This document shows, piece after piece, positions 5,058 to 42,373 of a DNA stretch of 64,000 nt (its first letter is position 1; each line of letters opens with the position of its first letter). The position numbers and the translations under genes are program-made. Origin of the DNA: Meyerozyma guilliermondii (Eukaryota); the NCBI GenBank assembly GCA_051546255.1, contig CP128815.1, forward strand, positions 124,001 to 188,000. The letters run 5' to 3'. A model generated the notes under the pieces. It saw only the letters and a program-made list of their open reading frames with translations. It did no database searches and was not told where the DNA came from.

Positions 5058-6563
5058 ATGTCACTTCCATTAGAATACAAAGTAACATTGCCAGACGGCC
5101 AAACTTTCACCCAACCATCTGGGTTGTTCATCAATAATGAGTTTGTCAAGTCGAAATCTGGTAAGACTTTGGACAGTATCAACCCATCGACTGGAGAAGT
5201 CAATGGTTCCGTTTATGCTGCCGAAGAAGAAGATGTTGATATTGCCGTCAAAGCCGCTAGAACCGCTTTCAAATCGTGGAAAAAGGTCACTGGTGTCGAC
5301 AGAGGAATCTTGCTCAACAAATTTGCTGATGTGTTGGAAAGAGACAGAGATTTGATTGGATCTATGGAAGCATGGGATTCTGGTAAAACCAAGGAACAAA
5401 ATGCTGTGTATGACATTGACGAGTGTATCAGCTGTTTCCGTTACTTTGCTGGATGGGCTGACAAAGTTAGTGGAAAAGTTATTCAAAATGATCCAAAGAA
5501 GTTTGCCTATACCATCCATGAACCTTATGGTGTATGTGGACAAATTATTCCATGGAACTACCCATTGGCTATGGCTGCGTGGAAATTGGCCCCAGCTTTG
5601 GCTGCTGGTAATGTGGTGGTAATCAAGTCGTCAGAAATTACTCCTCTTTCTCTCTTATACATCGGTACCATTTTCAAAGATGTTGGTTTCCCAGCTGGTG
5701 TGGTTAACATTTTGTCCGGGTATGGAGCTACTTGCGGAAAGGCATTGGCAAGCCACATGGATGTTGACAAGATTGCATTTACTGGTTCTACTGCTACTGG
5801 TAAACTCATCCAACAATTAGCCGCTTCGAACTTGAAAGCTGTGACTTTGGAGTGTGGTGGAAAATCTCCATTAATTATCAGAGCGGATGCTGATTTGGAA
5901 CAAGCAGTTAAATGGGCTGCTTTTGGTATCATGTCTAACCAAGGTCAAATCTGTACCTCGACTTCAAGAATCTATATCCATGAAAATGTCTATGACAAGT
6001 TTTTGACAGAATTCACTAAACATGTCAAGGAAGCTTATAAGCAAGGTGATATGTTCAATTCAGAGGCAGTTGTTGGTCCACAAGTTTCCAAGATGCAATT
6101 CGACAAGGTGATCTCGTACATTGAGATTGGAAAGAAAGAGGGTGCTAAGGTGCTTTTGGGAGGAGAGAAAAACACCGACGGTGACCTCTCCAAGGGTTTC
6201 TTTGTCAAGCCTACTATTTTTGCTGATGTCAAGCCTAAAATGAGAATTGTTAACGAAGAAATTTTCGGTCCTGTCGTGGCATGTGGAAAGTTTTCCACTG
6301 ACGAAGAGGCTGTGGAATACGCCAACCAAACTGACTATGGATTGGGTGCTGCTGTGTTTACCAGTGATATTACCAAAGCTCACGAGATGGCCAGAGAGAT
6401 TGAGGCTGGAATGGTATGGATCAATTCTAGTAATGACTCTGATTGCCATGTACCATTCGGAGGTGTCAAGTTGAGTGGTGTGGGTAGAGAATTGGGAGAG
6501 TACGGTTTGACCATGTACACTCAAGCCAAGGCTATCCACGTGAACCTTGGAAACAAGTTGTAG
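5058..6563 (+). CDS. NAD(P)+ aldehyde dehydrogenase (ALD2/3-like; probably trimethylaminobutyraldehyde dehydrogenase)
   Basis: PWNYP, FTGSTATG, TLECGGKSP, NQGQICTS (catalytic Cys), EEIFGPV and PFGGVKLSG; TATAAA about 40 bp upstream. Confidence 0.93.
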   Translation: MSLPLEYKVTLPDGQTFTQPSGLFINNEFVKSKSGKTLDSINPSTGEVNGSVYAAEEEDVDIAVKAARTAFKSWKKVTGVDRGILLNKFADVLERDRDLIGSMEAWDSGKTKEQNAVYDIDECISCFRYFAGWADKVSGKVIQNDPKKFAYTIHEPYGVCGQIIPWNYPLAMAAWKLAPALAAGNVVVIKSSEITPLSLLYIGTIFKDVGFPAGVVNILSGYGATCGKALASHMDVDKIAFTGSTATGKLIQQLAASNLKAVTLECGGKSPLIIRADADLEQAVKWAAFGIMSNQGQICTSTSRIYIHENVYDKFLTEFTKHVKEAYKQGDMFNSEAVVGPQVSKMQFDKVISYIEIGKKEGAKVLLGGEKNTDGDLSKGFFVKPTIFADVKPKMRIVNEEIFGPVVACGKFSTDEEAVEYANQTDYGLGAAVFTSDITKAHEMAREIEAGMVWINSSNDSDCHVPFGGVKLSGVGRELGEYGLTMYTQAKAIHVNLGNKL

Positions 6564-6833: not shown

Positions 6834-7616
6834 ATGCCCTATTACGCCATTGCTAACGGCAGAAAAACCGGGGTTGTACAAACTTGGAAAGAATGTGAGT
6901 CCCAAGTTGCAGGTTACAAAAATGCAAGGTACAAAAAGTTCAAAACTGAGGCAGAAGCAGCAGCATTCGTTCTGGATTATGGGTCTTCAGCCAAGCAGCC
7001 AGCTTCTGTAGACTACAGTCACCGTCAAAAACCAGCTGTTAATAACAATTCTCGAATCACAAAGCCCAAGACTACTCCTCGTCATGTTGATCCAACAACC
7101 AACTCATCCAACGTCCAACATATCTACGTGGATGGAGCTGCTCGAGGAAACGGAAAGGTACGGAGCCCCAAATCAGGATACGGTGTATTTTATGGAGAAG
7201 GAGATGAGCGAAATGCGGCTGTACCATTATCTAAAGTTGACTCTGATCGAACCGGAACTAACCAAAGAGCAGAGTTGCACGCATTAAACCACGCTCTTGA
7301 CGATATATCCAAAGAATTGAACCAAGGAAATACACCGAAGGAGTACATCATCCATTCAGACTCGCAGTACACCATTAAGGCAGTTGGTGAATGGGCTAAG
7401 AAATGGAAAACCAATGGCTGGCGTACGGCTTCTGGGACTCCCGTGAGTAATAAAGACCTTATCGAAAAGGCAGTTGATAAGGTTGCTACTATCAACAAGG
7501 CATATGTGGCCAGAAAAATGGCCCCAATAATAATAGCCTATGTCCCTGGACATGCTGGCAACTACGGAAACGAAATGGCAGACCAGTTAGCTAACAAAGG
7601 AGCTGACTTGGACTGA
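6834..7616 (+). CDS. RNH1: Ribonuclease H1, copy 1 (hybrid-binding domain + RNase H domain)
   Basis: YYAIANGRKTGVVQTWKEC...YKKF hybrid-binding domain. Catalytic motifs IYVDG, TNQRAEL, SDS, GH and NEMAD are all intact. Confidence 0.92.
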   Translation: MPYYAIANGRKTGVVQTWKECESQVAGYKNARYKKFKTEAEAAAFVLDYGSSAKQPASVDYSHRQKPAVNNNSRITKPKTTPRHVDPTTNSSNVQHIYVDGAARGNGKVRSPKSGYGVFYGEGDERNAAVPLSKVDSDRTGTNQRAELHALNHALDDISKELNQGNTPKEYIIHSDSQYTIKAVGEWAKKWKTNGWRTASGTPVSNKDLIEKAVDKVATINKAYVARKMAPIIIAYVPGHAGNYGNEMADQLANKGADLD

Positions 7617-7760
7617 CTTGCAATGCTATCACGAGGTCAATGGGTGCAATTCAGATCATCACGATATTGAATGCGCACGAATAACGAGGAACTTGTACAA
7701 AGTGCAATGTGGATACATCTCATTTCCATATTACCTTACTGTAAACCCATAGCTTTTGGG

Positions 7761-8250
7761 GAACTTGACATATTATGCAGCACCCATAATGTTAAACATA
7801 GAGGTCAGAACACCTCGGAAATCAAGCTGCTTGGGTAATGCGACCAGCCAGATTGAGTGAAAAAGTCTTCAGATAAAGACTCCAGAGGAGACGCGGAAGC
7901 CTCGAGAAAAAATACAGACTCCTGTCCCAACCCGGATGTCTTTGTCAAGTGTGGAAGCTCAAGTAAAATTGAAAACCTACTGATTCTGACATAATCCAGC
8001 CAAAGTTAATTCAGTGGGGGGTCGTAAGATTCTGTTGCTAAAGCCATAGACAATTCAGAGCTCTACCATCAGACGAGCCCATATAGATAGTCAGATGTGG
8101 TTTGAGGGATATCTTGAAACATCTTGAAACATCATGAAACATCATTAAACATCCACATCTAGTCTCACATTATCTAAGCAGCTTGATTTGAGGTACTGGT
8201 TCAGGTACCTCTAGTTCAGCGAATGGAACTAAACTTGTTGAGTCAAGTTC
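7761..8250. repeat. Degenerate inverted repeat, arms ~7761-7843 and ~8165-8250
   Basis: aaatcaagctgctt (7819-7832) is the exact reverse complement of 8176-8189. gaacttgac and tagaggt also match at co-linear spacing. Confidence 0.75.
8111..8153 (+). repeat. 10-bp tandem repeat (atcttgaaac)x4, degenerating
   Basis: atcttgaaac atcttgaaac atcatgaaac atcattaaac atc. Confidence 0.85.
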
Positions 8251-8500
8251 AAAAATACCTCCATATTCATCTTGATTAACCATAGGCACTGATCGATAAG
8301 ACAACGGGAAAACAAATCCAGGTATTTTAGAGTCATTTGATTTACGAAAGTATACTCGAGTTTCCACAAGATTAGATCCGCAGGATGTCGCTTAATCTTG
8401 CATCAAGATAAGAAGATTACTTAAACGCACCATTTTGACGGAGAATTGCGCACGACGAAAATCGATACCCTTCGTGAATAAAGCCAACCAAATTGAACCA

Positions 8501-9232
8501 ATGCCCTACTATGCAATTTGTGACGGCAGAAAGATAGGCGTTGCCCTGAGCTGGGAAGAATGTAAATCTTATGTTTCTGGATACAGCAATGCTTGGTACA
8601 GGAAATTCGACACCAAGTCTGAAGCGAGGGATTGTTTTACCTCCAATATGTACCTGTCAGATTCAGAAGACGATTACCTGTCTTATGGCAAAAATTTTGA
8701 CAGAAATTTTGAAATGGAACATATTTACATTGACGGAGCTTGTAAGAGAAACGGAATGGCTCTGCAACGTAAAACAGGATACGGCGTCTTTTATGGAAAT
8801 GGTGATGTGCGTAATGCAGCTGTTTCCTCGTCAAATGCTGATAAACTATCAGGAACCAACCAAAGATCAGAATTGCGCGCATTGTATCACGCTATCATAA
8901 ATATTGTCAATGACATAAATGATGACGGTACCACTAAGGCGTACACCATTCATACAGACTCGAAGTATGTCATCAGGGCTTCTGGGATCTGGGCCAAGAA
9001 ATGGAAATCTAATGGCTGGCGTACAACCACTGGGCGTGTTGTGGCTAATCAAGATCTCATAAAGAGGATAGTCTTTTATTTGAAAGAAATCAACGAGAGA
9101 CTTGCAAATATTGGCTTGCCTCCAGTAAAAATTGAGTACGTTCCTGGCCATGCTGGCAACCACGGAAACGAAATGGCAGATAAATTGGCTAACAAGGCAG
9201 CTGACGAGGATGGAGAACCATACTGGCTTTGA
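8501..9232 (+). CDS. RNH1: Ribonuclease H1, copy 2
   Basis: ATG at 8501 (MPYYAICDGRK); IYIDG, TNQRSEL, TDS, PGHAG and NEMADKLA. Confidence 0.9.
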   Translation: MPYYAICDGRKIGVALSWEECKSYVSGYSNAWYRKFDTKSEARDCFTSNMYLSDSEDDYLSYGKNFDRNFEMEHIYIDGACKRNGMALQRKTGYGVFYGNGDVRNAAVSSSNADKLSGTNQRSELRALYHAIINIVNDINDDGTTKAYTIHTDSKYVIRASGIWAKKWKSNGWRTTTGRVVANQDLIKRIVFYLKEINERLANIGLPPVKIEYVPGHAGNHGNEMADKLANKAADEDGEPYWL

Positions 9233-9845
9233 TGTTTACTTGCAATTCTTTTCACGACAAGTATTAAATTTCAAGTCTCTTCAGACTGAGATCTGCTCGC
9301 AAAACTAATTTCGATGAGGCCCATCAATGGATGCAAATTTATGATGAACAGGCGCAGCCTATTGACGGATCATACTTTGGATATACTGTCCTTGAGGAGT
9401 CATAATCACTGTTGCAACATGTCTGGATTGGACCAAGCATATCTCTACAACTTGATGTTTGCTTGAGCTCTATAGTGTACATCAATGCCACACTATGCGC
9501 CTTATGGTCCAGATTACGTTATCTCAAATGGTGCGAGTTTCGCGGATCAAATTAAAACTTTTTGCAACTCTTTTGCAATTTGATTATGCTCAAACTCCCA
9601 AACAGGCAACTTACTTCCCCAGATGCCTCCGCTTTAAGTAGCTTTTACATGTTTTACTATTGAACGAGATGTTTTCAAACCGATAACCGTTTTTGGGATT
9701 GCACACTTTTCATAAAATGCCCGCAAATTTCAGCGAATGCAGCAACTGTAAATCAATGTATTAGGGCACCCTAGAGGGTATAAAAAGATGGCAGACTCTT
9801 GTTCCCCCACCCCGCAAGAAATAATTGAAGAACTCAACTAAGAAA

Positions 9846-10365
9846 ATGCCGAATTCCGCAAGTGCCAATGGCAGAAAGGCAGGTGTTGTACTGAACTGGA
9901 AGGAATATGAGTCCCGCGTCTCTGGTTACAGTTATTCAAGTTTTAATAAGGGCAGCTCAAAAGCTGAAGCTGCCGCGTTTGTTCTGTCCAGTACTTCAAG
10001 CAAGCGCTCCAGTTCCTACAGTCACCAGCCAAGTTCTAGCGGAGGCAGTTATTCCTCAGCAAAGTCCACTAGTTCCAAGACTCCAAAAACCAAAAACTCA
10101 TCAGGAACGCAACAAGTTTACCCGGATGGAGCTTCTAGGGGAACGGTAAAGTACAGAACCGTATGTCTGGTTATGGTGTATACTATGGAGAAGGAGATAA
10201 GCCCAAAGCTGCTGAACCATTATCAAAAGCTGATCAAAAGCCAGGTTCTAATCAAAGAGCAGAGTTACAAGCTTGCCCCCAGTAAAAAGTGACCATGTTG
10301 CTGGTCATTCCGGAATTCACGGAATGGCAGATCGGTCAGCTAACAAAGGAGCTGACAACGATTGA
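9846..10365 (+). pseudogene. RNH1: Ribonuclease H1 pseudogene, copy 3
   Basis: Eroded hybrid-binding domain (MPNSASANGRKAGVV). A 1-bp frameshift near 10143 hides GNGKV..SGYGVYYGEGD..SNQRAELQA. An internal deletion at ~10272 joins to LPPVKSDHVAGHSGIHG--MAD..ANKGADND*. TATAAAA survives at 9779-9785. Confidence 0.88.
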
Positions 10366-10586
10366 GTTAAGGGACTGAGATTTTGTTAGCAGAGCTTTGT
10401 GATGAGGATTGTCAATGGATTCGATGGTGATCGAGCTCATCACGAAATTAGTTTTTACCTTATGAAATGAATGACCTATATATTGCTCGAGGATCAATGG
10501 TTTATACTTCTATTCTATTTCTCATTTTAAATATAATTCAGACTCGATTCTCACCATATAAAATTTCGCAGCTCTAGAAATGCAAA

Positions 10587-11381
10587 ATGCCTTATTACGC
10601 TGTCGCTCATGGTCGTCAAACTGGGGTGGTTAAAAGCTGGAAAGAATGCCAATTGAGAGTACAAGGTTACCGTGGAGCGATCTATGAAACTTTTCGTCAC
10701 GCAACCGACGCCTATAATTTCGTTGATGAAAATAATCCTTCGAAGAGAAGTGAACATTGTACCAAAATCTTTATTGACGGCGCATTTCAAGGAGACCAGT
10801 GCGGATATGGAGTCTGGTACGGCGATGATGATCCCAGAAATGCTGCCGTACCACTTTTCCAGGCAAAAGAAGAACTTCCATTGAACAATCAACGAGCAGA
10901 ATTAAGGGCCATGATTCATGTTTTTAGAAATATACAGCAAGAGATCGAACTGAACAACGGTATCCCTTTAAAAGAGTATGTGATTCTTACTGATAGTCAG
11001 GCTACCATCAAGGCACTCACCATTTGGTCTGTTAAATGGAAAAAGAATGGATGGAAGACAACGAAAGGAGAGATCATTGCAAATAAAGATCTAATTAGTG
11101 AAGCTGTTGAATTATTAGAGAGCTTGGAGCAATACTACCGAACCAGTGACTTGAGATTAGCAATCGAACATGTTTATGGGCATGCTGGTGTACATGGGAA
11201 TGAAGAAGCTGATAAATTAGCAACTTTCGCAGCAAGCTTGACTACCATCATACTGGAAAATAAGGATACCAGCAAACTGAAAATTCCCTACGAATTCCCT
11301 TCAACATGGGTTCTGGTCACCGGCTTTACTATAGCTCTTGTTCTGCTAGGGTTCTATGTCTTGAGGAAAAGAAGGTCCTAA
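10587..11381 (+). CDS. RNH1: Ribonuclease H1, copy 4, with C-terminal transmembrane tail
   Basis: MPYYAVAHGRQTGVV hybrid-binding domain; IFIDG, NNQRAEL, TDS, GHAG and NEEAD; ends with a ~19-aa hydrophobic segment plus RKRRS. Confidence 0.88.
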   Translation: MPYYAVAHGRQTGVVKSWKECQLRVQGYRGAIYETFRHATDAYNFVDENNPSKRSEHCTKIFIDGAFQGDQCGYGVWYGDDDPRNAAVPLFQAKEELPLNNQRAELRAMIHVFRNIQQEIELNNGIPLKEYVILTDSQATIKALTIWSVKWKKNGWKTTKGEIIANKDLISEAVELLESLEQYYRTSDLRLAIEHVYGHAGVHGNEEADKLATFAASLTTIILENKDTSKLKIPYEFPSTWVLVTGFTIALVLLGFYVLRKRRS

Positions 11382-11401: not shown

Positions 11402-12907
11402 CTAAGACTTTCTATTTCTTTTAAAGTGGTCCACAATGACACCATATATCGCCACTAAAGACCCAACAGCACTCAATGCGCACCCAACATACGCTGCTGT
11501 CTTGGTGGCTTTAACTTCAGCATTGAAATCAGTACCTGGTGCTTGCTTCAACACAGCAGTTCCAGCAACACCCAAGGCCAAAGATATGGAATAGTTGACT
11601 ACGGTCGCAACCAAAGAGGCAGAAATGCCCTGCCATTCGTGGGGTACAACGTCACTCAAGAGGAGCGTTGCTGCGGGAAAGCACACATCCACTCCAAAGG
11701 GTGCTATAATGAAGGTAATGAAACAGGATGCCCAATAACTATCGTGCACATCAACGACAGATAACATTGCTGCTGATATTACAAATGCCAATAGTCCAAT
11801 TACCATCAAGACCTGAGTCGTAACTCCTTTGGAAAGCATAAAGCCGGTGAATGCAGCTGCTAATAATCCACTCACAATTGCTGGGGTAAATTTTACTGCT
11901 GCAAGAATTGGACTATCGCCTCGAAGAGACAAGAGAAAGTTGAAATAGAAGTAGATCAAGATTCCAAAAGTTCCAAACCCACAAGCAACACAAATCAACA
12001 CTCTCAACACTATAGGTGACATCTGCTTAATGGGAATCAATGGCTGCGAAACCTTCAATTCGACGTAAACGAAAATGGACAACAAAAGCACCCCAATAAC
12101 CAACAAGATGTACGTATACGGTGTCAGCCATTTGACAATGGGAGCTTGATTCCAGGCTACGTTGAAGAGCACAAGCCCCCCAACTCCTGTGAAGGCACCC
12201 AAAAAGTCAAATTCCTTATTTCTTCCTTCATCTAGGGTATCCTGTGGTATTATCAAAAATGCCAAAATGGTGAGACAAGCGCAGGCTATTCCCATAGACC
12301 AATATATCCACGCCCAGTGAGTAAACTGGGAAAAAATTGCACCAAAGATACTTCCAAATACGAACCCCAAAGGAGTTCCTGCTCCAAATACCACAAAGGC
12401 TATAGTCTTCCGCTTGCCTGGCGGATAAAAACGTCCTAAAATTGCAAGACCGTTGGGAAGCAAAAATGCTGGACCAACACCCTGGAACCCTTTGCAGCAG
12501 TAATAAAAAACAGCATTGGAGTAACTACTGGCACCGGTCAATAAGGACCAAATTGTTAGCCAGACATACCCAAATAAGAACATTCTCTTGTGTCCCAAAA
12601 TATCGCCCAATCTCCCAGCAATGATGATTAACGTACCTGCGCTCAAACTCAAAGATGCAATTGACCAGGTAAGTTCTGCTTCATTAGTTATGTTGAACCA
12701 TTCACCAATAATCCGTATCGATGAAAGGCCCTGTGCGACACTTACCTGGGTAACAAATTGACCTGAAAATATGATCAAAACGAATAAGATTTCGTGAAAG
12801 AGAGAGATTTGCGGTTCAATAATTTCGATAGTATTTGTCTTGTCTTCATTTCCTGTGACAGTTTCCGGATCAGATACATCAGTATTCATATTGGAGATAT
12901 TGCTCAT
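11402..12907 (-). CDS. ATR1: MFS drug:H+ antiporter, DHA2 family (ATR1/SNQ1-like)
   Basis: Many TM segments; AGRLGDILGHKRMF motif A, QGVGPAFLLPNGLAILG, DFLGA and QGISASLVATVVNYSISL. Start 12907 is preferred because a TATATAAG lies at 12941-12948, immediately upstream of the earlier ATG. Confidence 0.82.
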   Translation of the reverse strand: MSNISNMNTDVSDPETVTGNEDKTNTIEIIEPQISLFHEILFVLIIFSGQFVTQVSVAQGLSSIRIIGEWFNITNEAELTWSIASLSLSAGTLIIIAGRLGDILGHKRMFLFGYVWLTIWSLLTGASSYSNAVFYYCCKGFQGVGPAFLLPNGLAILGRFYPPGKRKTIAFVVFGAGTPLGFVFGSIFGAIFSQFTHWAWIYWSMGIACACLTILAFLIIPQDTLDEGRNKEFDFLGAFTGVGGLVLFNVAWNQAPIVKWLTPYTYILLVIGVLLLSIFVYVELKVSQPLIPIKQMSPIVLRVLICVACGFGTFGILIYFYFNFLLSLRGDSPILAAVKFTPAIVSGLLAAAFTGFMLSKGVTTQVLMVIGLLAFVISAAMLSVVDVHDSYWASCFITFIIAPFGVDVCFPAATLLLSDVVPHEWQGISASLVATVVNYSISLALGVAGTAVLKQAPGTDFNAEVKATKTAAYVGCALSAVGSLVAIYGVIVDHFKRNRKS

Positions 12908-13000
12908 GACAATTTTCTTCCAATTGAGAAACGTTACCATCTTATATATCCGAAGTAGCACGCATATACGAAATGAGGTCAGTTCAACAAATCAATCGAG

Positions 13001-15314: not shown

Positions 15315-17279
15315 ATGAGTGCATTTGCTGCATTTCGCAAAAAATCGGTTACTGAGCTCTTTAGCAACGAAGAAGAAGACGATGAGGAAATAAAATACGA
15401 AATTGGTTCTTCCGATGAAGAAGTAGAAGATAAGCAGATTATAGACTCCGATAGGACGCGACCCAGTAGTGCTACTCCAACAATAACTCCATCGGTATCC
15501 CGTTTAGTGTTAGTCCCCGAGATCTCTGAGTCAAGGTTTATTCCCGACGATGATAATTTTCTAGTTTTTGACGACCATATAATCGTGGGACTCAAAACAA
15601 ATGAGTATCTTCTTGTTTCGGGCCAATGTAAAATCACAGTACAACGAGGAGCAGTGAAGTTAAACGAGGTTGATTACCACCACGCCGACCCAGAAAGGTC
15701 AATTTCAATTGTTGCATCTTTTTCCCAGTCACTTCCTATGATTTCAAGTACGCAGATTCTAGACAGAGATGGTGTTCGAGATACCCAAAACGACCATAAC
15801 AAGCATTTATTTTCGAGCGACTATAAGTCTGTAGTGATGATCGCCAATTACTCCACTGGAGTAGAAGATATAGGACTGTACTGGCGACCGTTCAAGAGAT
15901 TCTTTGGATTTGGTGGAGAATCCGATGTTGAACTGCTTGGAGAGATGGAACGACTCTTCCAGTCATACACCTTCGAGATTGTGCTCCGTAACAATGGGTC
16001 TTTAGGAATGAATCTTGACGCAGTATGGGGTACAGATCTCAAAAGTTTATGCGAGAATATAACTGAGGACCTCGAATCCAGTGTGACAATGATAATAGGC
16101 AACAAGAACAGCGGCAAGTCAACTCTCTCAAAGACTCTTACGAACGCCTTATTATTGAAACAAAGACTTCCAGTGGCATATTTGGACCTAGACCCGGGTC
16201 AATCCGAGTTTTCTGCTCCGTTTACGTTGTCTCTTACACTCATACATGAGCCTATTTATGGCATGTATCTCTTCAATCCCCATGAAGTGGTCTCGTCACA
16301 CTACTATGGGTTCACCACCCCACAACAGCACCCAGACCTATACATCTCCATTGCCAAATCACTTTTGCATAGCTTCATAAGCAAGCTCAAATCACAGGGA
16401 ATAAATCTTGTGATAAATACACCAGGTTGGATCAAAGGGTTTGGAATGGAAATTTTGAACAACATTTCGAATGAACTCGAACCAGACCATCTAATCTTAT
16501 TATCAGGAAGTCTCGATCCAGGGAGCCCTGAAAACGCTGACATACTATCCACAATCACCCACAAAAAATCCCACATTTTTCAAGGAATTTACCATCAATC
16601 AAAGTACTCTCCATCTCAATTACGAACTTGGAATAAGCTATTGTACTTCCACAGGCAAAACACTCCAAGCGGACTGCACTTTGATTTCAAAACTCACATT
16701 CTAGATAAACCCCCATTGAGACTACCATACCAGGTTGAAGAAGACCCATCGTTTTGCGGTTTGAACTCGGTTCTGTTCCTCAATGTGGATCCATCAGAAG
16801 TTGGCAAGGATAATATTGCGTTACTTTTGGATGCCTCTATCGTTGGATTCTACCTTATAGACTACGAGTACTACTCTTCGTACCAAGGACTACAACTGAT
16901 TTCTCCCGACCAACCTCTAATCATGAGACTGGCATTATACTCTGATATGATCGATTTTCGAGCAACTGAGGTCCTGTTTGCGGGACTTGGCATGATCCAC
17001 AGTATCGATACTGCGAGACATTGCTTTAATATTTACCTACCATTTTCCGTCAAAGAAAACTTGGAGAAGCATTTATCCAATGGAATGAAGTTGGTAATGG
17101 TTAAAGGCGAGGGCGACATTCCTCCAGCAGAGTTTCTCAAGCCAGAATTGCTCAAATCAGTAAGCAAAAAATCGGCCGATGGAAGCAACCTTCCACTTCC
17201 TTATATCAGTTTTGAAAGCAACAAGGTTGCTGGTGTGTGGAAGATGCGCCGAAACGTCATGCGTAGGGGCCAACGATGA
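15315..17279 (+). CDS. GRC3: Polynucleotide 5'-hydroxyl kinase (Clp1/Nol9 family)
   Basis: GNKNSGKST P-loop, LDLDPGQSEF and INTPGWIKGFG; C-terminal W.MRRNVMRR; ATG at 15315. Confidence 0.9.
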   Translation: MSAFAAFRKKSVTELFSNEEEDDEEIKYEIGSSDEEVEDKQIIDSDRTRPSSATPTITPSVSRLVLVPEISESRFIPDDDNFLVFDDHIIVGLKTNEYLLVSGQCKITVQRGAVKLNEVDYHHADPERSISIVASFSQSLPMISSTQILDRDGVRDTQNDHNKHLFSSDYKSVVMIANYSTGVEDIGLYWRPFKRFFGFGGESDVELLGEMERLFQSYTFEIVLRNNGSLGMNLDAVWGTDLKSLCENITEDLESSVTMIIGNKNSGKSTLSKTLTNALLLKQRLPVAYLDLDPGQSEFSAPFTLSLTLIHEPIYGMYLFNPHEVVSSHYYGFTTPQQHPDLYISIAKSLLHSFISKLKSQGINLVINTPGWIKGFGMEILNNISNELEPDHLILLSGSLDPGSPENADILSTITHKKSHIFQGIYHQSKYSPSQLRTWNKLLYFHRQNTPSGLHFDFKTHILDKPPLRLPYQVEEDPSFCGLNSVLFLNVDPSEVGKDNIALLLDASIVGFYLIDYEYYSSYQGLQLISPDQPLIMRLALYSDMIDFRATEVLFAGLGMIHSIDTARHCFNIYLPFSVKENLEKHLSNGMKLVMVKGEGDIPPAEFLKPELLKSVSKKSADGSNLPLPYISFESNKVAGVWKMRRNVMRRGQR

Positions 17280-17370
17280 TTTTCCAGTAGCTGCAAACTG
17301 TGCAACTTCTTTACCGAGCCTGGTGCATTGGGGTGCACCAGATAAAATTTCAAGTTCTGACAGCGACGTC

Positions 17371-18759
17371 ATGAAGTCAATGAAATTACTGGCTCTCACA
17401 GCAATTGTAGGGCTTGCTTCGGCCATAATACCCGATGTGGATCAGCTAAGAAACACCAAGGGTGAATCAACTTTAGAACCAGGACACCAATCGCTTCCTG
17501 ATTTACTTCAGATCAACGACGTGCACGACCTTGATTTGACTTGGCAAACAACCAACCTCAGGTACGACACTGGAAGGTTGATCCTTGACCAAGGTACAGG
17601 AAGCTTGTGGTCGATTGCCCAATTAGCAAACTCACTAGATGAATGGACTGCCGAATTGACATTTAGATCAACTGGACAAGTGAATCAAGATGCTCAATTC
17701 CAAGATAACGGATTGGCGTTTTGGTTTGTCGATCCTGAGAACACTCCTATCTCGTCGTCTGCGACTGAAAACTATGGTGGTCCCTCTTACTTCGATGGTT
17801 TTCAAATTGTGATGAACAATCGTGATGCCGCAGGCTTAAAAATATTCATGAACGATGGTTCAATTGCTCGACAGACCTCCCTCAGTGACTCGATAGGCAA
17901 TTGTGTATTTAACTATCTTGACTCTAACATTCCCTTTACCATCAGGGTGTCATATTCAAGGCAAAGAAAATGGTTCAAGGTTCAGGTTGACAACAACTTG
18001 TGCTTCAAAACGGACAGTATCACCATTCCAACATCGGCAAATGACTTGAAGTTTGGAGTTACCGGAAACATAAACCTGCAATCACTGGAAACCTTTGAGA
18101 TACTCAAGTTGTCGGTTTGGTCCTCGTTAACAGAAGATGCGATTGACGACCATGGATTGATGGCAGATGGTCAATTGAAAGTACAATACAAAACCATGGT
18201 AGTTGACGATAAAGATGACCATGTTCCTCCAGCTCAAATAAGACAGTCTCTCATGGAGAGAACACGTTTACATCAAAAGCAAATGATGGAGGAACGGAGC
18301 TCTTTGAGTCAAGAAGCATTATTGCAAGATATTGTCGCTCGACTCGAAGCCATTGAAAAATCCATATCAAATCTTGCAAACACCCAAAACACTAATGATT
18401 ACGAAAGTCATGCTGCAAACAAGCTCCAAGGTAACCTCGAGACATTCCAAGCTACAATTACCAACCAGTTCTCCAACATGGTGGATGCGTTATCTAACTT
18501 GAACCAAAAGGTGATAGGAGAGGTTAGAGAGCATCAGCATGGAATGGACGAAATATCTAAAAAAGTCGATCTTTTGATGGCTAACCACAAGGAAATTACT
18601 CATCAGTATAATGAACAACAACAACTTCGTCCTCCTTCATCGGAACTAACCACCACAATCGTTAGGTGGGTTTTGACACCAGTAATTTTGTGCATTATTG
18701 TGTTGAGTATCTTCATCTACAGATTGAGACATGATATCAAGCACTCCAAGTTGCTTTGA
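17371..18759 (+). CDS. EMP47: L-type lectin COPII cargo receptor (Emp46/Emp47)
   Basis: Signal peptide, lectin motifs (GLAFW, YGGPSYFDG), coiled coil, TM segment and KHSKLL dilysine-type tail; start 17371 or 17380. Confidence 0.85.
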   Translation: MKSMKLLALTAIVGLASAIIPDVDQLRNTKGESTLEPGHQSLPDLLQINDVHDLDLTWQTTNLRYDTGRLILDQGTGSLWSIAQLANSLDEWTAELTFRSTGQVNQDAQFQDNGLAFWFVDPENTPISSSATENYGGPSYFDGFQIVMNNRDAAGLKIFMNDGSIARQTSLSDSIGNCVFNYLDSNIPFTIRVSYSRQRKWFKVQVDNNLCFKTDSITIPTSANDLKFGVTGNINLQSLETFEILKLSVWSSLTEDAIDDHGLMADGQLKVQYKTMVVDDKDDHVPPAQIRQSLMERTRLHQKQMMEERSSLSQEALLQDIVARLEAIEKSISNLANTQNTNDYESHAANKLQGNLETFQATITNQFSNMVDALSNLNQKVIGEVREHQHGMDEISKKVDLLMANHKEITHQYNEQQQLRPPSSELTTTIVRWVLTPVILCIIVLSIFIYRLRHDIKHSKLL

Positions 18760-21296: not shown

Positions 21297-23045
21297 CTAT
21301 ATGGGGTCTTCTCCATACTTCTTCATGTTGTCCCAGCCAATGGAGTTGGAGTTGGGGACTCGAACGCTTTCAACACTGAAAGCAAGATCGCTATTCATTG
21401 GGTTGGGATATACCGTGGTTAAACGTATTGGTTTTTTTATAGGCTGCACTTTGGTGGCTGCAGTTTCTTCATCGTTTCGAAGTTCAAGTGGTAACTTGGA
21501 GGTAATTTCCTTGTAGGTGGTGGGGTTGACTATGTTGTTGACCACTGTAACACGAGGATGTAAGAGTTCTGGAGGTATGACGGCGTTGGGATCTTGCGAA
21601 TGTTTTCGAATAGCATTTTCTCGTTGTTGCTTCTCGACTTGCTCCTTCCTAAGCATTGTCAACTGGTCAAAGTCTGTCATCTTGAATTCGTAATATCGAT
21701 CCCAAGTTTCTCGAGCTATTTCTCTGTAGCTGTTGACAAGTAAGTTGTACTGGAGATTAGCATGGAGCATTTCGATATTGCTGTGATCTTCCACCTCATC
21801 TCTCTTTGCTGAGGAAGCTTCCTTGATGACTTTGTTGTGAAACAGTTCATGTACCAAGCCCTTTATGTTCATATCTGCGCGTCTTTTCCTCATACGCTGC
21901 AACTGCTTAGGACTTTTATGACACTTTGAAATCACAGTTAAAGACGCAGGTATTCTATTCAACTTGTTTGCAAACGCAGCGTCCTTGTAATTACCACTAC
22001 CGACTCCTCTGTGAGTCTTTGTGTAGTAGTATTTGGTAAGAGTGGTTTCGAGCTCCGAATAAGATAGCTGCTGCATATTCTTCAGCACCTTCGTTTCTGG
22101 CTTTTTAATCGGGAATGCAGGAGATTGTTGTGTACCTCGAGAGGCGTAATAGTTTGGAACTTTACACAAGTGGTTGATATTGAACTCCTGGATGTACCCT
22201 TGTCCTGGAATTAAAGACTCGGTCAAATCTAGCGTATTGGGATCGATACTGGTGTAATACTTGCGGATCTTTCCAAGAGGCCTACGACTAACTGGTTTGC
22301 GGCCTCTCTTTAAGGGACCATGTCCCTCTGACCTCGCTGGCGCTGACGCTGGGTCTGGCCTCTCTGGTTGTTGTACTTCTAAGGGGGGAAGGACGTTTTC
22401 CTGAGCGAGCAATTCCAAATCGGCTGGAGGAAGTTTCGAGGGAGGAAGCAAACGTTGGAACATGGGCAATGTCTTGTAAAACTTGAACTTTGCCACCTTG
22501 GTTAAAGCGTTGAATGTGGAGAAATTGAGGTCAAGAGTCGATTTAACTTCACCATACTGAGGTAATACTTGGTTGATACTGATCTGGTTCTCCTCTAGTT
22601 GAGGATTAATGACAGGAGCTGAGGAAACGCTGTTGGCTTCATTAGTTGACTCCCCAATGAGAATCTCCTTATTGGTAAGAATGGACAAGAGAAAACGGAA
22701 GGGGAGATAAAATTGACGTTTATCGGTATCGTCTTTAGAGATAAGTCCATGACTCCAAAGGTGATTGTTTTCAGTGGTTGTAGTCCTTTTGAGGTGTGTT
22801 TTGACTCCATACTTGCTCATACGCATCAAAACTTGATACGAGGATGGTAACCGCCATAGTAAAGCCAAGTCTCTAACCAAAACATTGTACTCGTTGTTGT
22901 CAAACAGAAATAATGGCACCTTACTCTCCAGCTCAAAATCTGCCAAATCACGTATTTGTTCTGCTGCATCAGCAAATGCTGGTTCTGTTGGCTCTGTGAT
23001 GGATAATGGGCTCCGCAAAGGAACTGACGGATGTATTACCTTCAT
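21297..23045 (-). CDS. SWP82: Rsc7/Swp82-family chromatin remodelling subunit (SWP82-like)
   Basis: Blocks LIPGQGY..KVPNYY, IEMLH..WDRYYEFK and RVPNSNSIG resemble recalled S. cerevisiae Swp82 blocks; AT-hook-like KRGRKP. Confidence 0.62.
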   Translation of the reverse strand: MKVIHPSVPLRSPLSITEPTEPAFADAAEQIRDLADFELESKVPLFLFDNNEYNVLVRDLALLWRLPSSYQVLMRMSKYGVKTHLKRTTTTENNHLWSHGLISKDDTDKRQFYLPFRFLLSILTNKEILIGESTNEANSVSSAPVINPQLEENQISINQVLPQYGEVKSTLDLNFSTFNALTKVAKFKFYKTLPMFQRLLPPSKLPPADLELLAQENVLPPLEVQQPERPDPASAPARSEGHGPLKRGRKPVSRRPLGKIRKYYTSIDPNTLDLTESLIPGQGYIQEFNINHLCKVPNYYASRGTQQSPAFPIKKPETKVLKNMQQLSYSELETTLTKYYYTKTHRGVGSGNYKDAAFANKLNRIPASLTVISKCHKSPKQLQRMRKRRADMNIKGLVHELFHNKVIKEASSAKRDEVEDHSNIEMLHANLQYNLLVNSYREIARETWDRYYEFKMTDFDQLTMLRKEQVEKQQRENAIRKHSQDPNAVIPPELLHPRVTVVNNIVNPTTYKEITSKLPLELRNDEETAATKVQPIKKPIRLTTVYPNPMNSDLAFSVESVRVPNSNSIGWDNMKKYGEDPI

Positions 23046-41527: not shown

Positions 41528-42373
41528 ATGATATCTGATGCCCCCATCGGTGACATGCTAGAAACAGCACTTTCCACGTTTCAAAGTGCCTTTGATGCTT
41601 TGTCCAGGATAGAAGACTCCAATAAGACGCCACTGCTGGATCGGCAATTCATAATGGATTCTTTTCATGTCAATAGATTAACAAAGGCGTTTAAAGACTG
41701 GGAAGAACGCAACAAAAAATCGTATTTGGAGACAGAAGCGAGAGGTTACAACAAACAAGTCGGCGAGATAGCGAGGGTGAATACAGAGGTCGAAGCTTTG
41801 GAAGCTAATCTCGAACGGACTTTGGAAAAAAATACACTTCCCAACTTTGCATTTTCAATACTGACAATCGAAAACTATAACGACGGAGAATTCCTCAAGT
41901 ATTTGACCCGAGACGAAAATGGACATTACCAGAAACAAGTCAGAACTTCAGAAATCTTTCTGCTTGACGTCAATTCAAAATTGGCAGAGCCAGAGTTTGA
42001 AGTGTTCAATCGTCTCATCAACATCGAAGCACGCATAAGACTACAGAAAAAAATTGTGTGTGAGATATTGATCCATACAAAAAACCAATTGGCATCAAGG
42101 AATAGAAAGTGGAGTTCCCGTGATACTAGTTTGCAAGAATTTCTTGAGGCGACGCTTCCTGGGGTCTTCACAGAGATTGAAAAGGTGCGTAATGAAATAA
42201 GACAAGAGGCAGAAAGAAAAGACAACAAAGACGTTGATATGGAACACGAAACGGACTTTGACGAACAAGAGAACAACGATGAAGATATGGCTGCTCCTGA
42301 GCAGAATGATGAAGCTGCAGAAGCTCAAGATGAAACATCGTCAAAGCCAGAAATGATGGATCTCAATGAATGA
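41528..42373 (+). CDS. Coiled-coil protein with acidic tail, probably THO complex subunit Mft1-like
   Basis: 281-aa ORF with weak recalled similarity (VNTEVEAL, FLKYL, KWSSRD) and an acidic C-terminus. Confidence 0.5.
   Translation: MISDAPIGDMLETALSTFQSAFDALSRIEDSNKTPLLDRQFIMDSFHVNRLTKAFKDWEERNKKSYLETEARGYNKQVGEIARVNTEVEALEANLERTLEKNTLPNFAFSILTIENYNDGEFLKYLTRDENGHYQKQVRTSEIFLLDVNSKLAEPEFEVFNRLINIEARIRLQKKIVCEILIHTKNQLASRNRKWSSRDTSLQEFLEATLPGVFTEIEKVRNEIRQEAERKDNKDVDMEHETDFDEQENNDEDMAAPEQNDEAAEAQDETSSKPEMMDLNE

Follow-up and report, generated by a model that had tools for sequence, protein, structure and literature searches.

RNase H1 is generally regarded as one housekeeping enzyme, which clears R-loops in the nucleus and mitochondria, and a single RNase H1 gene is the usual state. 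Human RNASEH1 and Saccharomyces cerevisiae Rnh1 consist of a hybrid-binding domain, a linker and a type 1 RNase H domain with a catalytic D-E-D-H-D set. In Arabidopsis, passages of a preprint describe RNase H1 duplicates (RNH1A, RNH1B and RNH1C) that are told apart by cellular destination and split between nucleus, mitochondria and plastids (bioRxiv 10.1101/662080). Here we analyse a 64,000-nt stretch of the Meyerozyma guilliermondii genome (assembly GCA_051546255.1, contig CP128815.1, positions 124,001 to 188,000, hereafter the window), in which four RNase H1 units, c1 to c4, lie in tandem at 6834–11381. The array keeps the domain order and, in c1, c2 and c4, the catalytic residues of the human and S. 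cerevisiae enzymes. Unlike them, it comprises four tandem copies, with a further dispersed one; c4 has a predicted C-terminal anchor, a linker of 12 residues and no equivalents of human K59/K60; and no copy carries a mitochondrial presequence. The reading we consider probable is that of a lineage-specific family of cellular RNase H1 genes, produced by serial tandem duplication in the M. guilliermondii lineage and composed of an old, remodelled c4 and of young copies that are partly decaying.

Under this reading, the family would have formed in two steps. In the older one, a duplicate (c4) would have gained a C-terminal membrane anchor and a highly basic tail, lost nearly all of its flexible linker and replaced two lysine equivalents needed for RNA:DNA binding in the human domain, with all catalytic residues retained. 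Purifying selection would have maintained it since then, most strongly in the altered N-domain, and what it acts on at the membrane surface may be RNA:DNA hybrids or a partner that the new N-domain recognises. In the younger step, the canonical copy would have been duplicated into c1, c2, c3 and at least one dispersed copy. The copy that keeps the canonical architecture, c1, would probably be the housekeeping enzyme; the other young copies would be largely redundant, fast-evolving and lost one by one (c3 dead, a null allele of c2 segregating, the fifth copy truncated), a birth-and-death process driven mainly by relaxed constraint. Of the elements of this reading, the structures and domains of the genes, their catalytic residues, their phylogeny, the differences in copy content and the relative divergence are directly observed; insertion of c4 into a membrane, its topology, the choice of membrane, enzymatic activity and a neutral course of the decay are deduced.

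Four diverged RNase H1 genes in tandem

The features of the array are as follows (window coordinates).

6834–7616, + strand: c1, 260 aa, PF01693 and PF00075; canonical-type RNase H1
8501–9232, + strand: c2, 243 aa, PF01693 and PF00075; paralog with an acidic linker, intact here
8714–8722, + strand: c2 deletion site; a 5-nt deletion deduced for other assemblies would part the N-domain from the RNase H domain
9846–10365, + strand: c3, pseudogene relic; longest open reading frame 9846–10292, 148 aa, with PF01693 only
10587–11381, + strand: c4, 264 aa, PF01693 and PF00075; predicted tail-anchored paralog
10587–10724, + strand: c4 N-domain, residues 1–46; hybrid-binding-domain fold with the K59/K60 equivalents replaced
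11307–11378, + strand: c4 C-terminal hydrophobic segment of about 17–19 residues followed by 4 basic residues; predicted tail anchor

The original prediction, made from the letters and open reading frames (ORFs) of the window, described four co-oriented RNase H1 units here, and the ORF listing and Pfam both recover them: all four lie on the + strand and share the same N-terminal start motif. ORFs were translated with the alternative yeast code, table 12, in which CTG encodes Ser. We judged this code to be the right one because CTG is avoided in the window (6.2 per 1000 codons, against 100.6 for the other Leu codons, in 26 other window ORFs) and because all close named homologs come from CTG-clade yeasts. 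The frequency of CTG is 16.4 per 1000 codons in c2 and 18.9 in c4, 2.6–3 times that of the 26 other ORFs.

The RNase H1 N-terminal, hybrid-binding domain PF01693 was found in c1 to c4 with E-values of 8e-19, 1e-13, 1e-5 and 4e-15 and bit scores of 68.1, 51.3, 26.2 and 56.2, all above the cut-off of 21. The RNase H domain PF00075 was found in c1 (E 3e-28, 99.2 bits), c2 (1e-25, 90.8 bits) and c4 (2e-20, 74.1 bits), far above its curated cut-off of 25.8, and the Pfam search returned no match to it in c3. The catalytic residues D100, E147, D176, H240 and D250 (c1 numbering) are invariant in all 13 aligned family members, c1, c2 and c4 included; together with the tblastn reconstruction of c3 described below, this bears out the claim that three copies keep the full catalytic set and that the third is dead. 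The c1 protein retains the equivalents of human W43, K59 and K60 and is likely the housekeeping copy, and c2 has R and K at the K59/K60 columns. Forms of c1 of 260 aa occur on 54 contigs.

The linkers between the two domains had been described as sharply different, and their lengths and charges agree with this. The c1 linker is basic (48 aa, seven K/R against three D/E), that of c2 is acidic (26 aa, two K/R against six D/E), that of c3 is Ser-rich (25 S/T among 44 aa) and that of c4 is nearly absent (12 aa). Over the whole protein, c2, c3 and c4 are 54%, 47% and 40% identical to c1, respectively.

Mis-assembly is in principle able to turn one gene into tandem repeats, and the original prediction had named an assembly artefact in long reads as one way in which it could fail. 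We found no other support for this explanation. The copies are 40–54% identical in protein; the longest DNA repeat within the array spans 124 nt at 63–71% identity. The same proteins were found again on dozens of independent public contigs and, for each copy, in named NCBI records of two Meyerozyma taxa, and NCBI proteins identical to c1, c2 and c4 sit together on one contig of 2,095,439 nt. Assembly duplication is excluded because the copies are old and diverged.

A retrotransposon origin of the RNase H domains fares no better. The array genes share their fold with the RNase H of Ty/LTR (long terminal repeat) pol genes; unlike these, they come without reverse transcriptase (RT), integrase, gag or LTR, and all four units carry the cellular N-domain PF01693. 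Pfam detected no RT, integrase or gag domain in the four units or in the 27 other window ORFs of at least 180 aa, in agreement with the earlier description of cellular-type genes. No long direct repeats flank the array, and transfer RNA and Rfam scans returned nothing in or near it. We regard artefact and mobile origin, taken together, as extremely improbable. We conclude that the window is an ordinary piece of CTG-clade yeast chromosome and that the array consists of cellular genes.

Sharply different linkers and termini are also what a stable division of labour would produce, in which each intact copy, as in Arabidopsis, serves its own compartment or condition (nucleus, mitochondria, membrane surface or stress), the copies are subfunctionalised instead of redundant and a c2 null is tolerated since its condition is rare. 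The promoters, which have no detectable similarity, point the same way: no shared promoter elements were detected among the copies, and among the four only c3 and c4 are preceded by TATA-like motifs, an observation of little weight in either direction. The Arabidopsis duplicates, as described in passages of that preprint (bioRxiv 10.1101/662080), offer a precedent, and c4 fits this explanation well. However, N-terminal targeting peptides and in-frame upstream ATG codons are absent from all window copies; three of the five paralogs, intact in a close relative, exist in the window species in a dead, split or truncated form, which speaks against separate, indispensable roles of the young copies; and the split allele of c2 outnumbers the intact one in contigs (43 against 22). 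The likeness to Arabidopsis has two further limits: there, as far as those passages go, targeting is into DNA-containing organelles, whereas the c4 anchor would leave the enzyme outside them, and the yeast family loses copies rapidly between close relatives. A division of labour across the family is therefore, in our judgement, unlikely.

P0005, the c1-like protein of a more distant relative, has an Arg/Ser/Ala-rich extension of residues 1–64 before the conserved start, which resembles a mitochondrial presequence. Within the 884-nt spacer between c1 and c2 lies a 25-nt inverted repeat (7819–7843 and 8165–8189, 88% complementary, arms 321 nt apart), and 10-nt tandem units occupy 8111–8150, between its arms. 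A further relic copy was sought in the four spacers with eight family proteins as tblastn queries; the single match (E 0.01, 34% over 47 residues, two stops) was judged to be due to chance.

The tail and the N-domain of the fourth copy

The original prediction mentioned relocalisation of the fourth copy, and a candidate signal for it is present: a C-terminal hydrophobic segment followed by a basic tail, which we read as a predicted anchor. We scanned 159 proteins of at least 140 aa with 17-residue Kyte-Doolittle windows. In c4 (264 residues), a mean hydropathy of at least 1.5 is reached by one window only, which begins at residue 242, and the same single-segment pattern was found in all nine c4-type database proteins. 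Window c4 and these nine proteins all end in a tail of 3–4 basic residues after the segment. The tails extend 4–6 residues past the scored window, P0091 with 12 being the exception. Among the 148 other homologs, one (P0103) has a hydrophobic C-terminal segment, there without a basic tail, and the tail segment is absent from all 133 further 50%-identity representatives that a search through 1.84 billion cluster representatives returned. The sequence of the segment is 38–42% identical between window c4 and P0053, P0090 and P0091, with its hydrophobic character retained.

A single hydrophobic segment at the extreme C-terminus followed by 3–4 basic residues is also found in mitochondrial and peroxisomal tail-anchored proteins, and tail charge steers such proteins to mitochondria or peroxisomes, a rule that passages of the source give for mammals (PMC5450235). 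If the rule extends to yeast, c4 is most likely bound for the mitochondrial outer membrane or the peroxisome, with the endoplasmic reticulum/nuclear envelope as the alternative. Sequence features thus suggest that c4 may be a catalytically active RNase H that is anchored in an organelle membrane and exposes its enzyme part to the cytosol. MAVS is a nucleic-acid-sensing example of a tail-anchored protein in passages of another source (PMC13032619); its likeness to c4 is one of analogy, not homology. Our literature search found no tail-anchored RNase H1, and no known tail-anchored protein that it did find is an RNase H.

The second alteration concerns the hybrid-binding domain. In the human domain, according to passages of two studies, substitutions of W43 and K59/K60 compromise RNA:DNA binding and serve as non-binding controls (PMC10639055, PMC6868509). 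Alignment to human RNase H1 shows that the c4 N-domain keeps the W43 equivalent and has an acidic residue and Thr/Ser in place of K59/K60. A basic residue is missing at both columns in all seven c4-type proteins compared, against one of 59 other homologs. No part of c4 is better conserved than this altered domain: its identity is 91% to that of P0090 and 76% to that of P0091, against 58% and 49% for the RNase H domain; at the same distances, the c1-type N-domain is merely 52–65% identical. Forms of c4 of 264 aa occur on 57 contigs.

The AlphaFold2 (AF2) model of c4 has a mean predicted local distance difference test score (pLDDT) of 85.6, with values above 90 over residues 1–48 and 58–217. Its top Foldseek matches are structures of the human RNase H1 catalytic domain (6vrd_A and 2qk9_A; E 5e-13, target-normalised template modelling score 0.81–0.84), and the same two structures are its best sequence matches. 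AF2 builds no helix in the C-terminal segment, and because of this we base the anchor call on hydropathy and conservation.

A conserved, seemingly membrane-fixed RNase H1 with a rebuilt and constrained hybrid-binding domain points to a job for RNase H outside the compartments that contain DNA. A bolder version would make c4 the founding example of an undescribed, tail-anchored class of RNase H1, conserved and catalytically intact, a surveillance nuclease fixed to the cytosolic face of mitochondria or peroxisomes and directed against cytoplasmic RNA:DNA hybrids, with the young paralogs as part of an arms race that decays after the loss of LTR retroelements. Its targets would be reverse-transcription intermediates, leaked organelle nucleic acids or cytoplasmic plasmids, and its N-domain would recognise something other than a generic hybrid. 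We hold this version to be quite doubtful.

Origin, divergence and decay of the copies

Two trees were built, a quick one of 72 rows and a careful one of 34 rows. From the quick tree we omitted fragments and standard-code translations of the window's own proteins (P0004, P0009, P0043, P0044, P0050 and P0052). The window copies all group with their near relatives in one clade, with a Shimodaira–Hasegawa-like approximate likelihood-ratio test (SH-aLRT) support of 92 in the 72-row tree and support of 85/81 in the 34-row tree. Proteins of Debaryomyces, Millerozyma, Spathaspora, Lodderomyces, Metschnikowia, Scheffersomyces, the Candida tropicalis group, C. oxycetoniae, C. anglica and C. railenensis fall outside it.

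Within the clade, the c4-type group has a support of 100/100 and a stem of 1.42 changes per column, and it includes P0090 and P0091. The members other than c4 also group together (89/85); P0005 and P0006, which are c1-like and come from more distant relatives, branch first, after which c1, c3 and a group of c2 with a fifth paralog (x5) form a polytomy. P0005 and P0091 are each found on a single contig of 20,327 nt, and P0006 and P0090 likewise on one of 18,844 nt, so that these two more distant relatives appear to carry one canonical and one c4-type gene close together. We take the c4 duplication to be the older event because of this pairing. Proteins of the c2, c3 and x5 types were found solely in the window species and in a lineage represented by a contig of 683,438 nt. 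In Meyerozyma sp. JA9 there is a c1-type protein (RLV84633.1) and a c4-type protein (RLV84630.1), and the position of the array is common to the M. guilliermondii species complex. The original prediction had noted that an old, clade-wide conserved arrangement would speak against it. The age holds for c4; the clade-wide part does not, the proteins of the other genera lying outside the clade. The phylogeny therefore describes a family that is specific to this lineage rather than spread across the CTG clade, with an array that appears old for c4 and young for the other copies.

The array was compared with its immediate flanks:

5058–6563, + strand: aldehyde dehydrogenase, upstream flank (PF00171, E 5e-179), 95–99% identical to relatives
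11402–12940, − strand: major facilitator superfamily (MFS) transporter, downstream flank (PF07690), 92–96% identical to relatives

Orthologs of the window's neighbours were found via 90%-identity clusters, with a JA9-named member for five of ten queried neighbours and a full-length member on the 683,438-nt contig for six of ten, the seventh being a 91-aa fragment. Against JA9, five flanking proteins are 91.6–95.2% identical, c1 70.0% and c4 80.9%. Against the 683,438-nt contig, six flanking proteins are 92.8–99.2% identical and c2 79.7%, and c1 differs at 25 of 260 positions and c4 at 20 of 264. Against a contig of 13,288 nt, five flanking proteins are 90.4–95.9% identical and c4 85.9%. With its nearest relative, P0008, c2 shares 77–80% identity. 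Protein divergence in the family is thus 2–5 times that of the flanking genes, on a flank baseline that the 90%-identity clusters bias upward. The RNase H domains themselves are only 76% (c2) and 73% (c1, against the JA9 type) identical to those of relatives, so the excess is not confined to the linkers. Between c1 and c2, the Nei–Gojobori (NG86) method gives 0.37 nonsynonymous (dN) and 1.3 synonymous (dS) substitutions per site and an averaged dN/dS of 0.29, which indicates long-term purifying selection overall under loose constraint; pairs involving c4 are saturated for dN/dS.

The young copies are also being lost. Aligned by tblastn with P0003, an intact relative, c3 matches residues 1–101, changes frame and continues with residues 98–142; next comes a gap of about 77 codons (residues 143–219) that takes away the third catalytic Asp and brings another change of frame, after which the relic resumes at residues 220–252 and ends at 10362. 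We conclude that c3 is a pseudogene. Its broken ORF was found again on eight contigs, and intact orthologs of 252 aa (P0153 and P0003) occur on the 683,438-nt contig and one other contig; c3 groups with them with a support of 99/96 in the 34-row tree.

Among 65 contigs, c2 is intact on 22 and split on 43, figures that count contigs and not independent strains. Where it is split, a protein of 172–218 aa starts in another frame (43 contigs), and an ORF of 75 aa holding the N-domain only was called on two. Removing 5 nt within 8714–8722 from the window DNA recreates exactly the end of the 75-aa ORF of P0308/P0310 and the frame junction of P0044. Protein sequences and window DNA together therefore suggest that other assemblies carry a 5-nt deletion allele of c2.

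The fifth paralog, known from named cluster members only, is represented in M. guilliermondii records by PGUG_00268 and QA089_000254 (proteins P0330, P0332 and P0050). It lies on contigs of 2,092,950 and 2,095,439 nt, sizes that match those of the contigs bearing the window's proteins. It is modelled at 152–190 aa with the N-domain missing. The window does not contain it, the best tblastn match there being 57%. On the 683,438-nt contig, P0007 (260 aa) is intact and forms a four-row clade of undefined branching order with the fifth paralog and c2. One member of the 90%-identity cluster of the fifth paralog (P0050), the 118-aa protein P0331, is labelled as belonging to the basidiomycete Naganishia cerealis, whose assembly seems to be contaminated with Meyerozyma DNA.

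In the JA9-type lineage, the c1-type gene is called as a C-terminal piece of 130 aa (P0147 and P0148) on eight contigs, four for each (the longest 21,038 and 20,029 nt). Elsewhere in that lineage it is a full 261 aa, and c1 may carry a disrupting allele there.

The rapid, birth-and-death turnover announced by the original prediction is thus supported by lineage-specific duplications, by a c3 that is intact in a relative, by a frameshifted c2 on 43 of 65 contigs and by a truncated fifth paralog. Duplicates in all states, from intact through split and truncated to dead, can be seen across species with flanks that are 91–99% identical, which makes the fate of duplicated genome-maintenance genes directly measurable.

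The same prediction compared this turnover to that of a defence family. Under such an explanation, the copies would be nucleases that destroy the RNA:DNA intermediates of retroelements or cytoplasmic elements, their divergence would be the trace of an arms race and their decay would follow the loss of the enemy, with c4 as a cytosolic sentinel on an organelle surface. The fast divergence of the RNase H domains (c2 76%, c1 73%) next to flanks at 92–99% is in line with this, as is the variation in copy content between very close relatives, and a cytosol-facing anchored nuclease would sit where cytoplasmic reverse transcription is met. Passages of a fungal genome survey report that LTR elements with a detectable pol gene are absent from Candida guilliermondii (PMC3248453), which fits a conflict that has been won or has ended, with selection relaxed thereafter. 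Yet the lack of LTR elements would be just as likely if the family were unrelated to them; neither the array nor its immediate surroundings contain a mobile element, RT or LTR; the averaged dN/dS of c1 and c2 is 0.29; and polymorphism within the species is ordinary. Fast change and pseudogenes are the standard signature of redundant duplicates. We found no direct evidence for a defence role, and relaxed constraint on redundant duplicates fits the divergence and the pseudogenes at least as well; we consider defence an improbable explanation.

Several observations weigh against the reading that we favour, a lineage-specific family with an old remodelled c4 and decaying young copies. With no presequence in any copy, the enzyme that serves mitochondrial DNA is left unexplained. 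With CTG read as Ser, the tail segment of c4 is moderately hydrophobic, with a mean Kyte-Doolittle value of 1.84 over 17 residues (2.38 with CTG read as Leu), two of the five CTG codons of c4 falling in it, and AF2 gives residues 240–262 a pLDDT below 50. The c1 orthogroup has a support of 64/58, and the approximately unbiased test does not reject an alternative to it (p-AU 0.43), which bears on the timing of the young duplications relative to the split from the JA9 type. The upward bias of the flank baseline enlarges the contrast with the family, and the allele counts of c2 refer to contigs. Within the species, amino-acid polymorphism affects 3.9% of sites in c1, 1.2% in c2 and 2.3% in c4, not above the 0.5–4.3% of neighbours. 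Finally, rapid divergence is seen even in c1, the supposed housekeeping copy, and would not be expected from redundancy alone.

Chromosome context and tandem RNase H1 genes elsewhere

Multiple or tandem RNase H1 genes are not unique to the Meyerozyma lineage. The expectation that other CTG-clade yeasts may also have paralogs proved correct: C. anglica has two, and the metagenome loci L003–L005 hold a tandem pair whose members are 70% identical to each other (10001–10702 and 12130–12828 in L003). The genes of these loci are nearest to proteins of the Candida/Lodderomyces group (72–84% identical to P0093); they represent an independent duplication in another CTG-clade yeast. P0338 (491 aa) contains two complete RNase H1 units in one frame: either a tandem pair has fused or the gene caller joined two genes. 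No tail anchor was found in these other tandem duplicates (L003–L005 and P0338). The metagenome scan returned 80 loci, the best 53% identical and none from close Meyerozyma lineages. Our literature searches, which most subscription journals lie beyond, found no published description of the family or of a tail-anchored RNase H1. The genes themselves are already present in public annotations, as "ribonuclease H" or hypothetical proteins.

Upstream of the array lie genes for a phosphopantetheinyl transferase, a threonine aldolase and the aldehyde dehydrogenase. Downstream follow the MFS transporter, which is convergent with c4 (stop codons 20 nt apart), then a hydrolase, a zinc-finger protein, a CLP1/GRC3-type protein, a RhoGAP, ARF, NPR3, PRP8, CDC23, an ATP-binding cassette (ABC) transporter, aconitase, SEC23 and others. 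Synteny in relatives was judged by co-occurrence on short contigs: the aldehyde dehydrogenase shares contigs with c1-type genes (6,985, 20,029 and 21,038 nt), and the MFS transporter shares the 13,288-nt contig with the c4-type P0089. Reading the gene order of JA9 from accession numbers was tried and dropped, the numbers of RGD2, enoyl-CoA isomerase and NPR3 being out of window order.

Elsewhere in the window, the ORFs at 1376–2386 (336 aa), 21297–23045 (582 aa) and 41528–42373 (281 aa) match no Pfam family at E 1e-5. The ORFs at 15315–17279 (CLP1/GRC3-type) and 17179–18759 (legume-lectin-like), both on the + strand, overlap by about 100 nt, and the second gene probably begins at an ATG further downstream.

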